64,000 nt of DNA. Origin: an uncultured Verrucomicrobiales bacterium (GTDB lineage Bacteria > Verrucomicrobiota > Verrucomicrobiia > Verrucomicrobiales > DEV007). Where the stretch lies: positions 15,072-79,071 of the forward strand of contig CALKOM010000014.1 in the NCBI GenBank assembly GCA_938091905.1, read 5' to 3'. Both the position numbers and the translations under genes were made by a program. Below, one piece after another: positions 5,937 through 49,695 of this stretch (position 1 is its first letter; the number at the start of each line of letters is the position of its first letter). Below the pieces are notes generated by a model that had not been told where the DNA came from, ran no database searches, and saw only the letters and a program-made list of their open reading frames with translations.

Positions 5937-6034
5937 GCGCTGTGTTCGCGTAAATCAGATAGGGCGTCAAGCTTGGAGACTTAACCCCATGAAAGAGAGT
6001 GCAGCCCGACGGATCATGGACGAAACTCGAAACC

Positions 6035-7699
6035 ATGATCCGTCCTCTCGCGATCGTTTTGGCCTCTATGATGGTGAGTCCTATCTCCCTAATCGCCGAC
6101 TCAGTGTGGGTTGAAGGAGAAACCGGTCAAACCACCAACCTGCGCAAGAACGGCTGGTATTCGTCCGTTCGAGCACAAGATTTGTCCGGAGCGGACTGGC
6201 TTGCCACGTATGGAAGTGATGTTCCCGTCGTCGCCACCTTTCCTCTTACGTTCACAAAAGCTGGGAACTACACGTTGTGGGTTCGAGCAAATCCTATCAA
6301 CGCAACACTTCACGCTGCAATTGGTGCTTCAGAAAAATGGTTAGAAGTTCCTATTTCCTCAGATCGCCATGAAATAATTAACATTGCCTCTGATGGCAAA
6401 CCAGACCTGCGCTTCCTCGCATGGAGCAAAGTTGGGCCGATATCGCTAGTAGAAGGCGAAACAAGACTTCGCTTTCGAATGTCTTCCAAGAATCGCAACC
6501 ATGGTGCCATCGATTGTTTCTGCCTCACCACCGACTCCGAGTGGAAACCAATTGGTATCTTAAAACCTAACGAATCTTCCAGTTGGCCCGCGCCAAAACT
6601 AACAGACACCAATCTCAGCCACTGGAGCGAATTCATTCGCCCGTCCGAAAAAGATCTCTCCTGGCGTGGCGTTCGTTGGCACCGCCATCTCGATGAAGCC
6701 GCGGCGGAAGCCAGCGACCTTGGGCGCCCCGTTCTCCTTTGGGCGATGAATGGGCATCCATGTGGTGAGACATGAAACAATGACGTCAAAGGACGCGACG
6801 AGATCTGGTCAGATCTCAACCTACAAAAGCTTTCCAAGGAATTTGTCTGTGTCATCGAGGAAACCTTTCATCTCCACCCGCCAAACTGGCTCAAGGATCC
6901 TCCGAGACCAAAGAGCACTGCGCTCTATCGCACCTATGTGAAGAATGCACCCAAGCTCTGGCCTAAAAACACCAGCACCTATCAAGGGTTCTATCTTATG
7001 AGCCCCACCGGTGACTACCTAGGTGGAAACTTCGGCATTGTTCGTGAAGAAGAAGCGCGCAACTTGATGACAACAGCGTTAGAAAAATGGAAAGCGACGG
7101 GTGCGGCCATGCGCACCGTTTCAACGAACCCTCCCGCCCTCTATGGTGGGAATGAGCCCCAACCTGGTTCTCTGAAACTGCAGCTCGCCTACCGTGACCT
7201 CCCACGCGGTGACGTTGAAAGACCAACCACGGTCTACGTTCAGAATCCCTACAACCTCGGATGGTTTGATTTCTCAAAAGAGGAGGCGCGTGCGCTTCTC
7301 ACAAAATCAGAAGAGCCGGTCACAATCCCGCACTCACTCTTTGCTAAGATGGCCACTCGAACACTAAAGGACGCTGTTCGGGGCCAGATGTCACGGTGGG
7401 ATAGCTCGGCACTCCACTCTGGCTCCCTCACTACGCAGCGAATCTTGAAAGCCGGTTCGCGGAGCTCCTATCGCCTAAAAGGATCCGTCAATCTGTCAGA
7501 GAATGAACGCCGCTATGAAGTTCAGTTGCTCGGCAAAGCCGTTTACGATGAACGCCTGCAGGCCTTTTTTGAATTTGAGCTCGTCGCCGTAGGCCAACGT
7601 AGTGGCAAAGGTGGTGCCAATGGCCGCGAAAACGATCTCGGACCTGCACCAATGGGAGTAGCTTTCAAGCTCTATCGATCACCCAAAACGAGCCGCTAA
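6035..7699 (+). CDS. Putative exported selenoprotein, 554 aa, Sec247: signal peptide, CBM-like jelly-roll domain, SelN/thioredoxin-like domain, C-terminal domain
   Basis: ORFs 5999..6775 and 6938..7699 share a frame. The only stop between them is TGA 6773-6775 in RPVLLWAMNGHPCGET-U-NNDVKGR, and a SECIS-like hairpin follows. Confidence 0.8.
6800..6817 (+). promoter_or_regulatory. Candidate bacterial SECIS element (apical hairpin)
   Basis: Perfect 7-bp stem GAGATCT/AGATCTC with a GGTC loop. There are 31 nt between the TGA and the loop. Confidence 0.7.
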
Positions 7700-8206
7700 C
7701 CAAGACTTCTTACATTGAGCATGTAGGTGAGATCTGCCGGATCAGACTCTAGCCTCTACCTTAGCGAAGCGATGAAGTTGTCCACTGTGCACGTGGTTGG
7801 ATACGCATGGTATTCCCACACCACACCCAAGAAGTGCTCGCGCGACACGGGCTCACCCCGATGCTCGGCGGAAAAGCGCTCGCACCCGAGCAATGAGCTC
7901 TTTCATGCTGATGGGCTTCACCAAATAATCATCTGCGTCCGTCTCCAGTCCAGCCACGCGATCATCTACCATGCCTTTGGCTGTCAACATCAGAATGGAG
8001 GGCTTACAACTACGACGCCGCAACTTCAGACACACTCTGTAGCAATCCACCCCGGGCATCATCACGTCGAATAGAATCAGATTACAAGCGCGCTCCAAGC
8101 CAAGTTGACCATCTTCAGCTGTGGCCACACGAGAACCATGCCCCCGCAAGGCCTCTGCTAGAGCCATCCTTATGGCCAGTTCGTCATCGATGATGAGTAG
8201 ACTAGT
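7696..8206 (-). pseudogene. OmpR-family response regulator pseudogene
   Basis: Receiver domain (LLIIDDE...LFDVMMPG...MLTAK...DDYLVKP), then a frameshift/deletion to a winged-helix remnant GEPVSREHFLGVVWEYHAYPTTCTVDNFIASLR*RLESDP...LG*. Confidence 0.85.
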
Positions 8207-8362
8207 CTAGGTACCGGACTTGGGTCGTGGAAACCGCAAGGTGAAGGTACTGGCTTTACCAGAAGCGCTATCAAGCATGACCTTGCCGCCGTAAGCCATA
8301 AGTAGCATTGACGCCACAGGTGCTCGCAATTCATGCAACACGCGCGCCACAAACCGGCTCTC
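8207..8362 (-). pseudogene. Sensor histidine kinase remnant with a large internal deletion
   Basis: H-box SRFVARVLHELRAPVASM joined directly to the terminal HATPase motif GGKVMLDSASGKASTFTLRFP*. Confidence 0.75.
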
Positions 8363-8548
8363 GATATCACTCGCGACGCAATGCATGCTGTGTCAACGCC
8401 AAGTGGTGCGTCTTTCAATCCACGACAGCAATTACGGTGATAACGCTTGTAGGGTTAAGAAGACGTTCAAAAATATTGTCATAACACCACGACCACGCCG
8501 AATGCAGCGTTCGACCATCATTCTTCTCCCACTGCGATGTCGTAAATT

Positions 8549-46077: not shown

Positions 46078-48336
46078 ATGGTCAGAGCGGCCCTCCTGCT
46101 TCTCTTGCTCCACGCAACGGTGCTCTCAATAGTGAGTGGTGCTTCCGCTTGGAAAGCAGACGTCCTCCCTTTCTTTGAGAACTATTGCTACGACTGCCAC
46201 GGTGACGGCACGGAGAAAGGCGACCTTTCCCTGAATGGCTACCTCACGGAAGCCTCCGTTCTTAAGGACATCAAGGTCTGGGATACGATCAAGTATCAGG
46301 TGGAGAACTGGGTGATGCCGCCACCGAATAAAGCACAGCCAACACCGACAGAGCGTAAGATGGTCGCCACCTACTTGGAGAATCTGCTCTACCCCTGCGA
46401 CTGCGACATTCCTGATCCTGGCCGCACTACCATCAATCGACTCAATCGCGAACAATACGATGCGCGACCTCGTCGGCATCGATGTCAGACCCACAGACAT
46501 TTTCCCAGCAGATGATTCAGGCTATGGCTTTGACAACATCGGCGACGTGCTCACGATTCCGCCCATCCTCATGGAACGGTATCTTATCGGAGCTGATAAG
46601 GTCCTCGATGAAGCGATCTTCACGGGGCCACCAGAGTCAATCACTAGGATCCACGATGCTTTAGTCATGATGGGAGGTAAACGCTCCGAACAAACCGCAC
46701 GTGTGTTAGATAAGCTAGGAACAGTAAAAGTGAGGCACCAGTTTAGACATCAGGGCGACTATAAGATCCGGGTGCGCTTGGGAATGGATAGATCGTCGAA
46801 CGAGGGACTGAAAACGACGCTCTCCCTCGACAAGAAGGTCGTCCACACGGCATCCGTGACCGCTAGCAAGCTTCGCCCAGAAGCGATTGAGACCACCGTG
46901 ACGGCAAAAAAGGGAGTTCGGAGGTGATCATAACTCTCAAAGGGAATCCCGGTAGGAATCGGCTCTTTGTGACGCCAATCGAGATAGAAGGACCATTCCA
47001 ACCAAAGGCCGATCGGCTACCGCCGTCGCACACCGCCATCTTTGGCTAAGTTCCTGGCAACCGTGATCTCAGAACAGCGGAACGTACCATTCGGAGATTC
47101 GGTCATCGCGCATTCCGTCGCCCTATCAAGCCTGATGAAGTCAAGCGGTTGGTAAAGTTCGTTCAGCTCAGTCTGAACCGCGGCGACGGCTTCGAGATGG
47201 GAATCAAACAAGCACTCAGAGCTATGCTCGTTTCGCCACACTTTCTGTTTCGAATCGAATGGCTGCCCGAGCCTAACAATCCCAAACGTGTTGAAGCCGT
47301 CACTGAATACGCTCTCGCTTCCCGTCTGTCTTACTTTCTATGGAGCAGCATGCCGGACAACGAGTTGCTGTCGCTCGCTTTCAAAGGTGAACTCCGCAAG
47401 CAACTCAAGCCACAAATCATGCGCATGCTGGCTGATCCAAAAGCGAACGAGCTTGCACGCAACTTCGGCGGTCAGTGGCTTGAGCCCCGCAACCTACAGG
47501 TTCACGAAGCAAATGGGGAGAAGTTTCCTGAATTTACCCCCAAATTGCGAGACGCCATGGCTCACGAGACGGAGGAGTTCTTTCTACACGTCATGCGTAA
47601 GAATCGGCCAGTGACCGAGTTTTTGACTGCAGACCACACCTTCGTCAACGAACCACTGGAAAAATATTACGATTTGAAGGGAGTCTCCGGACAGGATTTC
47701 CAACGTGTTTCTCTAGCAGGCACTCCGAGGCGCGGCGTGCTCACTCACGCCAGCGTACTCACGGTGACCTCCGATCCCACGCGCACGTCACCGGTGAAAC
47801 GCGGCAAGTGGATACTAAACAATCCGTTAGTCACCTCACCACCACCTCCTCCACCGAACGTCCCCGAGCTAGAAGAGAATGACTAAGCCGAACTTAAGGG
47901 CAGCTTGCAAGCACGAATGGAGAAATACAGAGATATTCCTGGGTGCGCGTCATGCCATCGCTTAATAGATCCGTTAGGCTTTGGCCTTGAGCACTTCGGC
48001 CCACTCGGCGCCTGGCGAGACAAAGATGGCGCCTATTCCATCGAGGCAACGGGCGAGCTTGTTTCTGGGCAGCAGTTCGAGGGTTCAGATGAACTCATTG
48101 GCATCCTCGATACCAAGAAGCGTGATCTCTATTACAAATGCCTGGCTCACAAACTACTCACCTACGCTCTTGCACGAGGCCTCGAATACTACGATCGCTG
48201 CGCAGTCGATGAAATTCAGGGTAAATTGGGGAAAGACAGCCGCTTCAACACCGTGGTAATGGCGATTGTAGAGAGCATCCCGTTTCAGAAACGTCGGGGC
48301 GATGGATATGTCGAGCCAGATCGAAGCAAGCGGTAG
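46078..48336 (+). pseudogene. Planctomycete-type cytochrome c / DUF1592-DUF1588-DUF1585 protein, fragmented
   Basis: CYDCH, RLNREQY, GYGFDNIG, LASRLSYFLWSSMPD, RTSPVKRGKW and CASCH motifs are spread over several frames. Frameshift near 46460 and in-frame TAA at 47884-47886. Confidence 0.88.
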
Positions 48337-48374: not shown

Positions 48375-49695
48375 ATGAGAAAGACTTCCCTAGACCGTCG
48401 CCGATTCCTCCGCGGGCTCGGCTCAACCTTCCCTTGAATCCCTCGGCGCAGGCCCCAGGGCGGCCACCGGAGCCCGCCCGGTGCGACTCGGGTTCGTCTA
48501 CCTTCTTAACGGCGTGAATGTGGATCAGTGGGAGCCGAAAGGCGGTTGCTCCAATCTTAAGCTATCTCAGACACTGGAACCACTGGCACCAGTTCAGGAT
48601 TACATTCAAGTGCTCAGCGGCCTTAAGCACGACAAAGCCCGCGCCAATAGCGATGGGGGGAGGCGATCATGCTAGAGCTAATGCAACCTTCCTCACCGGC
48701 GCTCAAGCACGCAAGACTGCTGGAGCGAATGTCGAAGTCGGGATCTCCGTCGATCAGATCGCCGCTGATCACGCAGGCAACCTAACAAGGCTGCCATCGT
48801 TAGAGTTGACTTGCGACAAACCGCGACGGGCAGGCAGCTGCGATTCGGGCTATAGCTGTACCTATCAATACAATATTTCCTGGAAATCGGAAACCACGCC
48901 AATGACACCGGAGCGCAATCCGCGTGAGGCTTTCGACAGATTGTTCAGCAACCGAATTCGTGGTGAAGTCGCCACCAATCGCGCTGCGCGCGACTTCTAC
49001 AACAAGAGCATTCTCGACTTTGTCACCGAGGACACTCGCAACCTGCGCAGGTATCTGGGACGCACCGATCAGGGCAAGTTGGACGATTACCTGGACACCG
49101 TCCGCGGGATTGAAAAACGAATCGAAACGGCAGAGAAGTTTGCTCTACAGACCCCTGACATGGACCGCCCACGAGGTTCCCAGATGATTATACCGAACAC
49201 CTGCGCCTCATGTATGACATCATGGCGGTCGCCTTCCAGACAGACACAACACGAATCAGCACGTTCCTTCCATCCCATGATGGCAACAATCGGTCCTTCA
49301 ATGAAGTAGGTGTGAAAGAAGGCCATCCCAGCCTCTAACATCACCAGAACAACGAAAATAAGCTTGAGCAAATCGGCAAGATCAGTCAGTTCTACGTGGA
49401 TCAGTTCAGCTATTTCATCCAGAAACTAGCAGACACGCCAGATGGTGATGTAAGCTTGTTGGATAACTCCATGATCGTCTTTGGTGGTGGCATTAGTGAT
49501 CCCAATCGCCACAGCCACAGCCACAGCGACTTGCCGGTCGTTCTGGCTGGCCGTGGTGGAGGCTACCTCACACCAGGCAAGCGGCAGGTCTATAAAGATG
49601 ATCCCATGTGCAATCTCTACGTCAGCCTTCTCCGAGGCCTGGGCGTGGAGACCAAACGCTTCGGTGACTGCACTGGCACTCTACGCGGTATCTAG
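48375..49695 (+). pseudogene. DUF1552 domain protein, fragmented
   Basis: RRRFLRGLG leader, GDHAR, ISVDQ, CDSGYSC and LLDNSMIVFG...HSDLP motifs in changing frames, with internal stops. Confidence 0.88.

Follow-up and report, generated by a model that had tools for sequence, protein, structure and literature searches.

The region 6035-7699 on the forward strand of the window, which is the whole 64-kb stretch of DNA analysed, is very probably a single gene for an exported selenoprotein of 554 residues, in which an in-frame UGA would be decoded as selenocysteine (Sec). This reading is drawn from sequence comparison and from structure models. The original prediction of a hidden exported selenoprotein with a SECIS element is supported, and it passed all of the refutation tests proposed with it that could be carried out. 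The predicted product has a signal peptide, a CBM6/35-like beta-sandwich, a domain of the Thioredoxin_7/DsbD-gamma type, and a beta-rich domain.

Structure of the Gene

The putative gene has its start codon ATG at 6035, the Sec-UGA at 6773-6775, and the stop codon TAA at 7697-7699. Ordinary ORF prediction divides it into two ORFs in an identical frame, one of 258 aa at 5999..6775 (GTG start; 246 aa when counted from ATG 6035 to the TGA) and one of 253 aa at 6938..7699, with the TGA at 6773-6775 as the sole break between them. The next 162 nt (54 codons) are stop-free and have neither ATG, GTG nor TTG until GTG 6938. With TGA translated as U, ATG 6035 opens a product of 554 residues that has Cys243 and U247 in the context ...RPVLLWAMNGHPCGET-U-NND.... 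Open codons 3' of the UGA number 307, and in alignment A5, which combines 19 references with database proteins, this part of the window copy keeps 4/4 invariant and 17/17 nearly invariant columns. Directly after the UGA, the window copy differs from the other members in two places that are otherwise conserved: it reads N-N-D, where all 80 loci compared (see below) have G at +3, and G-R-D, which elsewhere in the family is G-R-R/Q. The two ORFs in one frame, the single TGA followed by 54 open codons, the 554-aa read-through product with its Cys243/Sec247 pair, and a coding sequence free of further lesions had all been described in the original prediction, and all were reproduced here.

No promoter-like site was found between 5700 and 8000, and terminator-like sites in that interval occurred at chance level only. 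A scan of the window for ORF pairs linked by one or two TGA codons returned 12 stretches, this gene among them.

Conservation of the UGA Codon among Relatives

Genomic relatives were found with an alignment of the 61 residues preceding the UGA, so that the search patterns lay upstream of the tested codon, and 80 loci were kept out of 281 confirmed relatives in species-representative genomes. The homologous codon, which follows ...GET or ...GCT, is TGA in 80/80 of these loci, distributed over Verrucomicrobiota, Planctomycetota, Armatimonadota, and Marinimicrobia. The frame after the TGA is open for 290-360 codons in 75 loci; two are longer, two shorter, and one is cut by the locus end. All close members examined keep the predicted Sec, and a Cys replacement is present in none. 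In the genome-contig search, the best match had 70% identity, and the window's own genome was not among the matches.

The protein search gave 760 matches (cluster representatives) at E <= 1e-3, and the site was analysed in the best 150 of them. Among these 150, 25 N-terminal fragments end exactly at MNG[HN]P[CS]GET, 32 C-terminal fragments start at most 18 residues past the site (scattered over +4 to +18), and 23 proteins span the site; the other 70 are mostly shorter C-terminal pieces. The 23 spanning proteins are distant relatives, and 17 of them have a residue other than Cys at the UGA site (S 8, D 5, A 2, R 1, W 1, against C 6). The single W, in P0172, is probably a TGA translated as Trp by the gene caller.

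On the N-terminal side of the site, the window protein is 51-70% identical to its relatives. On the other side, it aligns with P0002 and P0003 from 6 residues past the UGA with 48-49% identity. These two proteins begin (M-G-R) 5-6 residues after the TGA position, and the window residue homologous to their starting M is Lys. Since the 54 codons after the TGA lie inside this alignment and the window is start-less there, they are coding. The same break is seen in two metagenomic relatives, P0319 (a 246-aa N-fragment, 98% identical) and P0225 (a 253-aa C-fragment, 95% identical), whose lengths are exactly those of ATG 6035..TGA and GTG 6938..stop.

The original prediction had proposed to look for TGA or Cys at this position in homologues; the former was found throughout the genomic loci and the latter in part of the spanning proteins, next to S, D, A, R, and one W. 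It had also named consistently separate halves as a contrary outcome, and this is not what was found, the separation being a product of gene callers that cut at the TGA. By this comparison, the UGA at 6773-6775 almost certainly encodes selenocysteine.

Hairpins Downstream of the UGA

The bacterial SECIS is a hairpin just 3' of the UGA, and recoding of UGA through it is textbook knowledge. In Escherichia coli fdhF, the SECIS loop reads GGUC. A hairpin of the bSECIS type, GAGAUCU-GGUC-AGAUCUC, is located at 6800..6817 on the forward strand over the codons E-I-W-S-D-L; the perfect stem with its GGUC loop 31 nt past the TGA was foreseen in the original prediction and is confirmed. The loop starts at 6807. 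According to the bSECIS consensus (PMC13188914, section 5), the loop has 3-9 nt with G in the first two loop positions, the stem has 4-16 bp, the distance from the UGA is 16-37 nt, and the MFE is <= -7.5 kcal/mol. The hairpin passes all four bSECIS rules, with a loop of 4 nt beginning with GG, a stem of 7 bp, a spacing of 31 nt, and -8.7 kcal/mol. As in the fdhF-type SECIS of E. coli, the stem-loop is part of the coding sequence and follows closely on the UGA, its apical loop is small and opens with GG/GU, and the spacing falls within 16-37 nt. It differs in two respects: the loop is almost as distant from the UGA as the consensus permits, and many relatives have another, stronger hairpin that precedes this one on the 3' side of the UGA.

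The 60-nt stretch has a folding energy of -12.6 kcal/mol (z = -1.57), which is attained by 13 of 200 shuffled sequences. For the 22-nt hairpin alone, at -8.7 kcal/mol, z is -2.9 and 1 of 200 shuffles is as good. On its own the hairpin is modest evidence; comparison with relatives lifts the observation well above chance. Over 78 distinct sequences, 71.5% of the cells of the two-hairpin structure are paired; with the 3' partner shifted, this falls to 30-43%. The covariation score of the structure, 0.179 (<= 0.129 for the shifted versions), was reached by 0 of 500 shuffles, with the caveat that the sequences in the alignment are related to each other. Pair 31-42 of alignment A4 is GC in 40 sequences, AU in 20, GU in 13, and other in 5. 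The strongest covarying pair changes from A-U to G-C and joins base 1 of an Ile/Val codon with base 3 of an Asp codon; this change could partly follow genomic GC content. The hairpin is kept in relatives with compensatory changes, as the check suggested with the original prediction had asked. For the Ser that closes the loop, 53 of 73 genes use UCA, versus 5.4 expected from each gene's usage, over a GC content of 0.34-0.73. Judged by this codon choice, the hairpin is under strong synonymous-codon constraint.

A weak proximal hairpin, CGUC-AAAG-GACG, is present at 6784..6795 on the forward strand as a remnant of the 6-bp GGCGUC/GACGCC hairpin of many relatives. The G-to-D change at +3 in the window weakened it to 4 bp, and its energy is -4.1 kcal/mol in the window versus -10.1 kcal/mol in locus L046. 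Among the 78 distinct sequences, 73% of its cells are paired, with little covariation. Its loop is 12 nt from the UGA and thus outside the 16-37 nt rule. Rfam gave no match, neither for the whole window at gathering thresholds nor for 6700-6900 at E <= 10; Rfam is not known to have a general model of the bacterial SECIS. From its fit to the bSECIS consensus and its conservation, the 6800-6817 hairpin would, when the ribosome pauses at the UGA, bring SelB-GTP-Sec-tRNA(Sec) to it, as the SECIS elements of other bacterial selenoprotein mRNAs do.

Other Explanations of the In-Frame UGA

The sequence could be a pseudogene, with the TGA as a nonsense mutation or the whole copy as a dead relic in a genome that has lost its Sec machinery, and with a truncated product of 246 aa or none; we consider this improbable. 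Decayed genes are present in the window, namely a two-component remnant at 7853-8386 (response-regulator fragment 7853-8167 and HisKA fragment 8207-8386) and, at 46078-48336, a PSCyt/PSD gene that is split; for this reason, the window copy could have been inactivated recently. The D at +3 and the weakened proximal hairpin also agree with decay, as does the absence of Sec machinery from the window: the selA, selB, and selD families are absent among its 48 ORFs, and 0 tRNAs, thus no tRNA-Sec, were found in the 64 kb. With ARAGORN, the flanks of 60 of the 80 loci yielded tRNA-Pro, tRNA-Asn, and tRNA-Met; tRNA-Sec was not among them. Against decay, all 80 relatives, which belong to four or more named phyla, share the TGA, as do the near-identical metagenomic relatives; it is thus inherited from an ancestor and no lesion. 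The open reading frame of 307 codons with all its conserved columns and the perfect distal hairpin also speak for an intact gene.

Still less probable is that the UGA is read as Trp, Cys, Gly, or Arg, through near-cognate suppression or a lineage-specific change of the code. UGA-to-Trp reassignment is reported for some Verrucomicrobiota (PMC13462651), and the W in P0172 means that at least one pipeline used a code with UGA as Trp. However, TGA, as the stop codon of 12 of the 36 Pfam-supported ORFs of the window, serves this organism as a normal terminator of translation. Moreover, the site is the redox position of the thioredoxin fold, where Cys recurs among the spanning relatives and Trp occurs in P0172 only, and in four phyla the UGA is followed by a hairpin that complies with the SECIS consensus and is under synonymous constraint. 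The idea of two separate genes, an exported CBM protein that ends at the TGA and a downstream protein with its own start, is the annotation given by every gene caller and has the M-G-R starts of P0002 and P0003 in its favour, but its probability is close to negligible. The 54 conserved codons of the window offer no start codon and have Lys in place of the M, and the scattered beginnings of the C-terminal fragments follow whatever start-like codon exists. Two genes would also split the thioredoxin fold between strand beta1 and helix alpha1, and the distant relatives with a sense codon at the site are single polypeptides.

Predicted Domains and Function

The single selenoprotein, which we prefer to these alternatives, has a hydrophobic N-terminus that is probably a Sec-type signal peptide (residues 1-21, MIRPLAIVLASMMVSPISLIA; 6035..6097, forward strand). 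Its close relatives have a hydrophobic N-terminal stretch ahead of a conserved WVE(G/A)E. The full-length AlphaFold model has a pLDDT of 88.8, with values <50 at residues 1-5 and 9-18.

Residues ~23-175 (6101..6559, forward strand) form a CBM6/CBM35-like beta-sandwich in this model. In Foldseek, the domain matched CBM6 structures 2cdo, 2cdp, and 5fui and CBM35 structures 2w1w, 2vzp, and 2w47 from the PDB, with E from 1e-6 to 1e-4, a probability of 1.00, and TM(target) of 0.6-0.72. The assignment is by predicted fold; Pfam CBM models did not match the read-through protein to E = 1. The jelly-roll or CBM-like domain expected in the original prediction can thus be specified as a CBM6/CBM35-like fold. 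Its relatives by sequence are N-terminal domains of proteins of ~890 aa, to which some sources give the names GH5 or GH42. The domain is lineage-specific, as most Sec-family members have no CBM and carry instead a short hydrophobic N-terminus or a zinc-ribbon with a membrane segment.

The thioredoxin-fold domain comprises residues ~190-354 (6602..7096, forward strand) according to AlphaFold and Foldseek. The AlphaFold model of residues 186-554 has a pLDDT of 94.2 and a pTM of 0.92. In the numbering of this model, strand 48-53 is followed by U 62, helix 63-72, strand 86-91, helix 107-119, strands 133-137 and 143-148, and helix 153-168, which is the beta-alpha-beta-alpha-beta-beta-alpha thioredoxin fold. 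The UGA interrupts the domain between strand beta1 and helix alpha1, and in the predicted structure its residue is at the N-terminus of helix alpha1, the classic redox position of the thioredoxin fold. The thioredoxin-like site of the original prediction is thereby borne out by the fold. The resemblance to the redox site of selenoprotein N (SCUG motif) that it also suggested would be a further possibility, on which the literature search returned reviews of animal SelN only. The top Foldseek matches were 3f9u, DsbD-gamma (1vrs_E, 2fwg), ERp19 (1sen), DsbH (2ju5), and AGR2/3, with probabilities of ~1.0 and TM(target) of 0.55-0.70. The DsbD-gamma/DsbH/ERp19/AGR2 domains (Thioredoxin_7-like) are the closest solved folds; they are extracytoplasmic or ER-lumenal and their redox residue starts helix alpha1, but identity to them is only 13-19%. 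Proteins of the DsbD-gamma type use CxxC or CxxS, whereas the Sec here has a Cys partner upstream in the beta1-alpha1 loop. Pfam thioredoxin families gave no match to the window protein up to E = 1, and five stand-alone spanning relatives matched no family to E = 0.01. The family profile had no significant match among PDB sequences (chance HLA matches at E >= 0.004, 3f9u at E = 0.09).

The candidate resolving cysteine, Cys243, is encoded by TGT at 6761..6763 on the forward strand, four residues before Sec. The unusual C-x-x-x-U site of the original prediction therefore holds for the window, but Cys243 is not universal. Of the 23 loci L001-L023, 21 have Cys at this position, and the other two, the Roseibacillus loci L019 and L020, have Ala; among the N-terminal fragments it is Cys in 23/25 and Ser in 2/25. 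A larger sister clade has C-x-U (HPLGCT-U) where the window clade has C-x-x-x-U.

The C-terminal beta-rich domain (residues ~375-548; 7157..7678, forward strand) has long antiparallel strands and high pLDDT. The most conserved motifs of the family, RDLPR, VRGQ, and DLGPAPMG, are located there. The domain had no match in Pfam/NCBIfam and only weak resemblances in Foldseek (LolA 8cgm_A, probability 0.30; 2w7q_A, probability 0.20). In the model, the beta-rich and thioredoxin domains would pack into one conserved module, with Sec247 at the N-terminal end of helix alpha1 in the invariant context T-U-N-N-(G). The protein is most likely an extracytoplasmic selenol-based oxidoreductase, with redox chemistry and substrate inferred. 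Sec247 would be the attacking nucleophile, and Cys243, where present, may resolve the intermediate via a selenenylsulfide. The substrate would be held by the C-terminal domain and, in this lineage, also by the CBM.

Family Membership and Distribution

Among the carriers are Saltatorellus ferox Poly30, for which a complete genome exists, and Roseibacillus persicicus KCTC 12988, a type strain in culture. A conserved neighbourhood was not found when 9 neighbour ORFs were compared with the 80 loci, where only generic response-regulator similarity was seen. Pfam and NCBIfam gave sub-threshold matches only for the read-through protein (CobW_C at E = 0.07; NF041383 at E = 0.14). Membership in NF041383 (VPGUxxT family, type 2) was rejected, with 11.8 bits over residues 213-273 against a cutoff of 275 and with HPCGET-U-NND as the motif here. 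Eight further catalogued thioredoxin-fold selenoprotein families gave 0 relevant model matches, and the 2026 catalogue of 119 selenoprotein families has no matching family. Among the papers listed in motif and topic searches of the literature, none describes the family.

The thioredoxin-fold selenoproteins in Table 1 of PMC13188914 include a Trx7/PDZ selenoprotein (NF041199, CxxU), VPGUxxT (NF041383), and thioredoxin-like Sec.1/Sec.2 (CxU / UxC). Like the family described here, they are bacterial, have an in-frame UGA followed by a coding hairpin and Sec in the Trx redox loop, have Cys homologues, and have a predicted function. The family described here differs in the motif T-U-N-N-G with Cys at -4 (window clade) or -2, which is not UxxC, CxxU, or VPGU, and in the fusion of Trx to a conserved beta domain of ~180 residues, absent from their descriptions.

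In the tree of the module computed in FastTree, there are at least three changes between Sec and non-Sec, and Sec is thus not immutable in the wider family. Sec-less paralogues serve Ser/Thr kinases and a FecR-type anti-sigma factor as extracellular domains. Their recruitment suggests that the module recognises a specific periplasmic ligand that would be transformed by the redox chemistry of the Sec form. We give an even chance to the view that these proteins constitute an undescribed selenoprotein family of four phyla, with an extracytoplasmic Thioredoxin_7-like fold (invariant T-U-N-N-G) joined to the beta domain.

Annotation systematically fails on selenoprotein genes, since it takes UGA as a stop. 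The original prediction that standard annotation would miss this gene proved right: all named relatives are "hypothetical protein" fragments cut at the TGA by gene callers, ESM Atlas has only unnamed "hypothetical protein" clusters, and the whole family, with its 281 confirmed genome relatives and 760 cluster representatives, is filed publicly as pairs of such fragments. The recoding mechanism itself is already textbook; the family is apparently an uncatalogued addition to the prokaryotic selenoprotein families, of which ~119 are known. Its occurrence points to the use of selenium in marine Verrucomicrobiota and in Armatimonadota, lineages little noticed for selenium biology, and its predicted product is an exported Trx-fold enzyme with an unusual active site, Cys upstream and Sec at the helix cap. 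For annotation, the family can be recognised by the signature MNGHP-x-G-x-T-UGA-AAC-AAY-GGN, followed by the hairpin core UCUGGUCAGA.

Reading frame and protein relatives

The ORFs 5999/6035..6775 and 6938..7699 of the plus strand share one common frame, and TGA 6773-6775 is the sole break between them; the 54 codons after it are free of stops and of ATG, GTG, and TTG. Translation from ATG 6035 with TGA read as selenocysteine (Sec, U) yields a product of 554 residues in which Cys243 and U247 lie within ...LLWAMNGHPCGET-U-NNDVKGRDEIWSD.... Two same-frame ORFs split by this TGA, with a hairpin just 3' of it, had been described in the original prediction and are borne out in the window sequence. 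Its reading as a single exported selenoprotein was essentially right, and homologue, RNA, and structure comparisons mark it as a real finding; UGA 6773-6775 very probably specifies Sec in one exported protein of 554 aa. UGA is also a normal terminator in the window, where the 36 Pfam-supported ORFs end in TGA, TAA, and TAG 12 times each.

The first round of word-based searching returned 73 matches, the majority being proteins of about 890 aa that align to the N-terminal domain only. Alignments of the two best, P0002 and P0003 (307 and 308 aa, 48-49% identical), begin at query residue 253, which is 5-6 codons past the TGA. With the module (residues 186-554) alone, 141 matches were found at E<=1e-10; each of the 120 listed covers at most 81% of the query, and all named matches among those listed are "hypothetical" or "uncharacterized" proteins. 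The closest relatives, P0319 (98% identical, 246 aa) and P0225 (95% identical, 253 aa), match the two halves of the window gene exactly in length.

An exhaustive HMMER search with residues 186-554 (U at query position 62, E<=1e-3) matched 760 cluster representatives, and fragment and spanning classes were assigned for the best 150. Among these 150, 25 are N-terminal fragments that end at ...MNG[HN]P[CS]GET and therefore terminate exactly at the UGA codon, 32 are C-terminal fragments starting no more than 18 residues past it, and 70 are other pieces, chiefly shorter C-terminal ones. The remaining 23 span the UGA site at 26-40% identity to the query and carry Cys (6), Ser (8), Asp (5), Ala (2), Arg (1), or Trp (1) there. 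P0172 reads ...MNGHPLGCT-W-NNG... and its sequence degenerates shortly downstream; a metagenome pipeline probably translated a TGA here with a UGA=Trp table.

Conservation of the UGA codon

Species-representative genomes were scanned with an alignment of the 61 residues preceding the UGA. The scan gave 297 matching stretches. Relationship was confirmed for 281 of them, and 80 of these loci were kept for codon, RNA, and tree comparisons. The window's own genome is outside the scanned representatives, and the nearest match has 70% identity. According to record titles, the 80 loci belong to Verrucomicrobiota (about 22), Planctomycetota (38), Armatimonadota (10), and Marinimicrobia (2), with one labelled Paracoccaceae and seven unclassified. 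Among them are loci from Roseibacillus persicicus KCTC 12988 (L019) and from Saltatorellus ferox Poly30 (L046), whose genome is complete. TGA is present at the homologous codon in all 80. The frame stays open for 290-360 codons past it in 75 loci; it is longer in L025 and L053, shorter in L034 and L058, and in L073 ends with the locus itself. The planctomycete loci L024 (at about 7235, locus coordinates) and L025 (about 7912) hold a second, non-Sec module paralogue 1.2-1.7 kb 3' of the Sec gene, as tandem Sec and non-Sec copies; its aligned codon is GAC in both loci.

Two motif types surround the Sec codon. HPCGET-U-NNG, the type of the window, is chiefly verrucomicrobial, and HPLGCT-U-NNG occurs in Planctomycetota, Armatimonadota, and others. 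All 80 loci have Gly at +3, and 79 of them have Thr at -1. At -4, L019 and L020 have Ala and two of the 25 N-terminal fragments have Ser instead of Cys, so the Cys243-Sec247 pair is common but not obligatory. The window departs from its relatives in having Asp at +3 (D250, GAC 6782-6784; N-N-D) against Gly in 80 of 80 loci, a change that also costs base pairs of the proximal hairpin, and G-R-D (D255, GAC 6797-6799) where related loci have GRR or GRQ. Most of the residual doubt about Sec at UGA 6773-6775 lies in the possibility that this gene copy, or the Sec machinery of this genome, is now non-functional. No tRNA was found in the 64-kb window, and its 48 larger ORFs gave no match to the selA, selB, or selD families; PMC4807772 reports full Sec machinery for some planctomycetes. 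In a FastTree analysis of 91 module sequences, the only tree method used, the window falls within a 24-row clade in which every row has Sec (local support 100). Non-Sec forms are scattered through the rest of this tree and force at least three changes. L044, titled as a Paracoccaceae MAG, pairs with Saltatorellus ferox (branch lengths 0.16 and 0.15, support 99), which points to a planctomycete contig binned in error and not to an alphaproteobacterial carrier of the family.

RNA hairpins

The inverted repeat GAGATCT-GGTC-AGATCTC (6800-6817, plus strand) is perfect, with its loop 31 nt past the TGA. The 60-nt stretch folds with z = -1.57, and the 22-nt distal hairpin alone has -8.7 kcal/mol and z = -2.9; taken alone, the window hairpin is modest evidence. 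When 66 nt from the UGA were folded for all 81 sequences (window and 80 loci), two adjacent hairpins emerged. The proximal one, GGCGUC-NNNN-GACGCC with its loop 12 nt past the UGA, is strong in many genes from planctomycetes and Armatimonadota (S. ferox, -10.1 kcal/mol) and in the window (6784..6795) is cut to 4 bp and -4.1 kcal/mol. The distal hairpin, with UCU-GGUC-AGA as its core and a loop made by the Trp-Ser codons, occurs in most of the 81 sequences; in the window it is perfect, with 7 bp.

Pairing in the two-helix structure reaches 71.5% across the alignment of the 81 sequences (78 distinct rows), compared with 30-43% in controls with a slid partner. The covariation score of 0.179 compares with at most 0.129 in slid controls and was reached by none of 500 column shuffles. 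Pair 31-42 is GC in 40 rows, AU in 20, GU in 13, and other in 5, but this swap may partly track genomic GC because it links base 1 of an Ile/Val codon with base 3 of an Asp codon. The Ser codon that closes the loop with its third base is UCA in 53 of the 73 genes with W-S here (GC content 0.34 to 0.73), against 5.4 predicted from the Ser codon usage of each gene itself; among their remaining Ser codons, 8.7% are UCA. This bias is a cleaner signal of probable constraint than the covariation at pair 31-42.

The bSECIS consensus given in PMC13188914 allows loops of 3-9 nt and stems of 4-16 bp, with G in the first two loop positions, spacing of 16-37 nt, and MFE <= -7.5 kcal/mol. The window distal hairpin satisfies each of these rules (GGUC, 7 bp, 31 nt, -8.7 kcal/mol), whereas the proximal hairpin, with its loop 12 nt from the UGA, fails that for spacing. 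Five planctomycete loci with the motif ...IARQSVW... (L034, L058, L067, L069, and L080) form an alternative 6-8 bp hairpin, CCAGAC/GUCUGG, in the first 40 nt or so past the TGA, and its 3' arm takes UCUGG of the standard distal hairpin; the SECIS may therefore vary by lineage.

Protein structure and family

The AlphaFold2 model of residues 186-554 (35-row alignment) has pLDDT 94.2 and pTM 0.92. About 170 N-terminal residues of the module are modelled as a thioredoxin fold, with the UGA residue (model position 62) directly N-terminal to helix 63-72. In the predicted structure this is the position of the nucleophilic Cys of thioredoxins; as the UGA precedes helix alpha1, beta1 is encoded 5' and alpha1 3' of the "stop". 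Foldseek against PDB gave 3f9u, 1vrs_E, 2fwg, 1sen, and 2ju5 (prob about 1.0, TM(target) 0.55-0.70). The module thus resembles Thioredoxin_7/DsbD-gamma/DsbH/ERp19/AGR-type domains in fold, although sequence identity is just 13-19%. The C-terminal beta-rich domain has weak Foldseek likeness at best (LolA, prob 0.2-0.3). The full-length model has pLDDT 88.8 and shows a CBM6/CBM35-like beta-sandwich at residues ~23-175, with Foldseek matches at E 1e-6 to 1e-4, prob 1.00, and TM(target) 0.6-0.72, in agreement with the CBM-like domain predicted earlier. Residues 1-18 are hydrophobic with low model confidence, consistent with a signal peptide, as are the hydrophobic N-termini of close relatives.

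Most of the close relatives L001-L018 have the four-part architecture of the window protein; in other family members a short hydrophobic N-terminus or a zinc-ribbon with membrane segment replaces the CBM. Non-Sec modules, in which D, S, A, or C occupies the Sec position, form the C-terminal part of Ser/Thr kinases (P0118, P0129, and P0192, one with Kelch repeats), follow a FecR domain (P0157), or precede a SecDF P1-head domain (P0132). Judged from these sequences, the fusions suggest an extracytoplasmic sensor or ligand-binding unit.

No Pfam model matched the window protein. Its best NCBIfam match was NF041383 (VPGUxxT type 2), and membership was rejected, as 11.8 bits is far under the cutoff of 275; for eight further family members NCBIfam returned nothing relevant. 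Among the 119 families that the 2026 review PMC13188914 lists in its Table 1, none has a C-x-x-x-U, GETU, or GCTU motif or an architecture like this one, and the review names neither Planctomycetes nor Verrucomicrobia. Motif and topic literature searches returned no description of the family, which supplements or subscription journals could hold. Because none of these sources gave a match, the family is apparently uncatalogued; its kind is well known, namely bacterial selenoproteins with a Trx fold that are decoded via a coding-region SECIS.

Neighbouring genes

Directly 3' of the selenoprotein gene, on the minus strand, are a response-regulator receiver fragment (7853-8167, profile positions 13-111 of 111) and a HisKA fragment of 59 aa (8207-8386), which look like the remains of a decayed hybrid two-component gene. 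Four successive ORFs at 46078-48336 on the plus strand match PSCyt1; PSD3; PSD5/PSD4/PSCyt3; and PSCyt3/PSD2, and look like one planctomycete-type multi-domain gene broken by frameshifts or stops. The next ORF after them, 48518-49309, has a DUF1552 match limited to profile positions 54-213 of 307.
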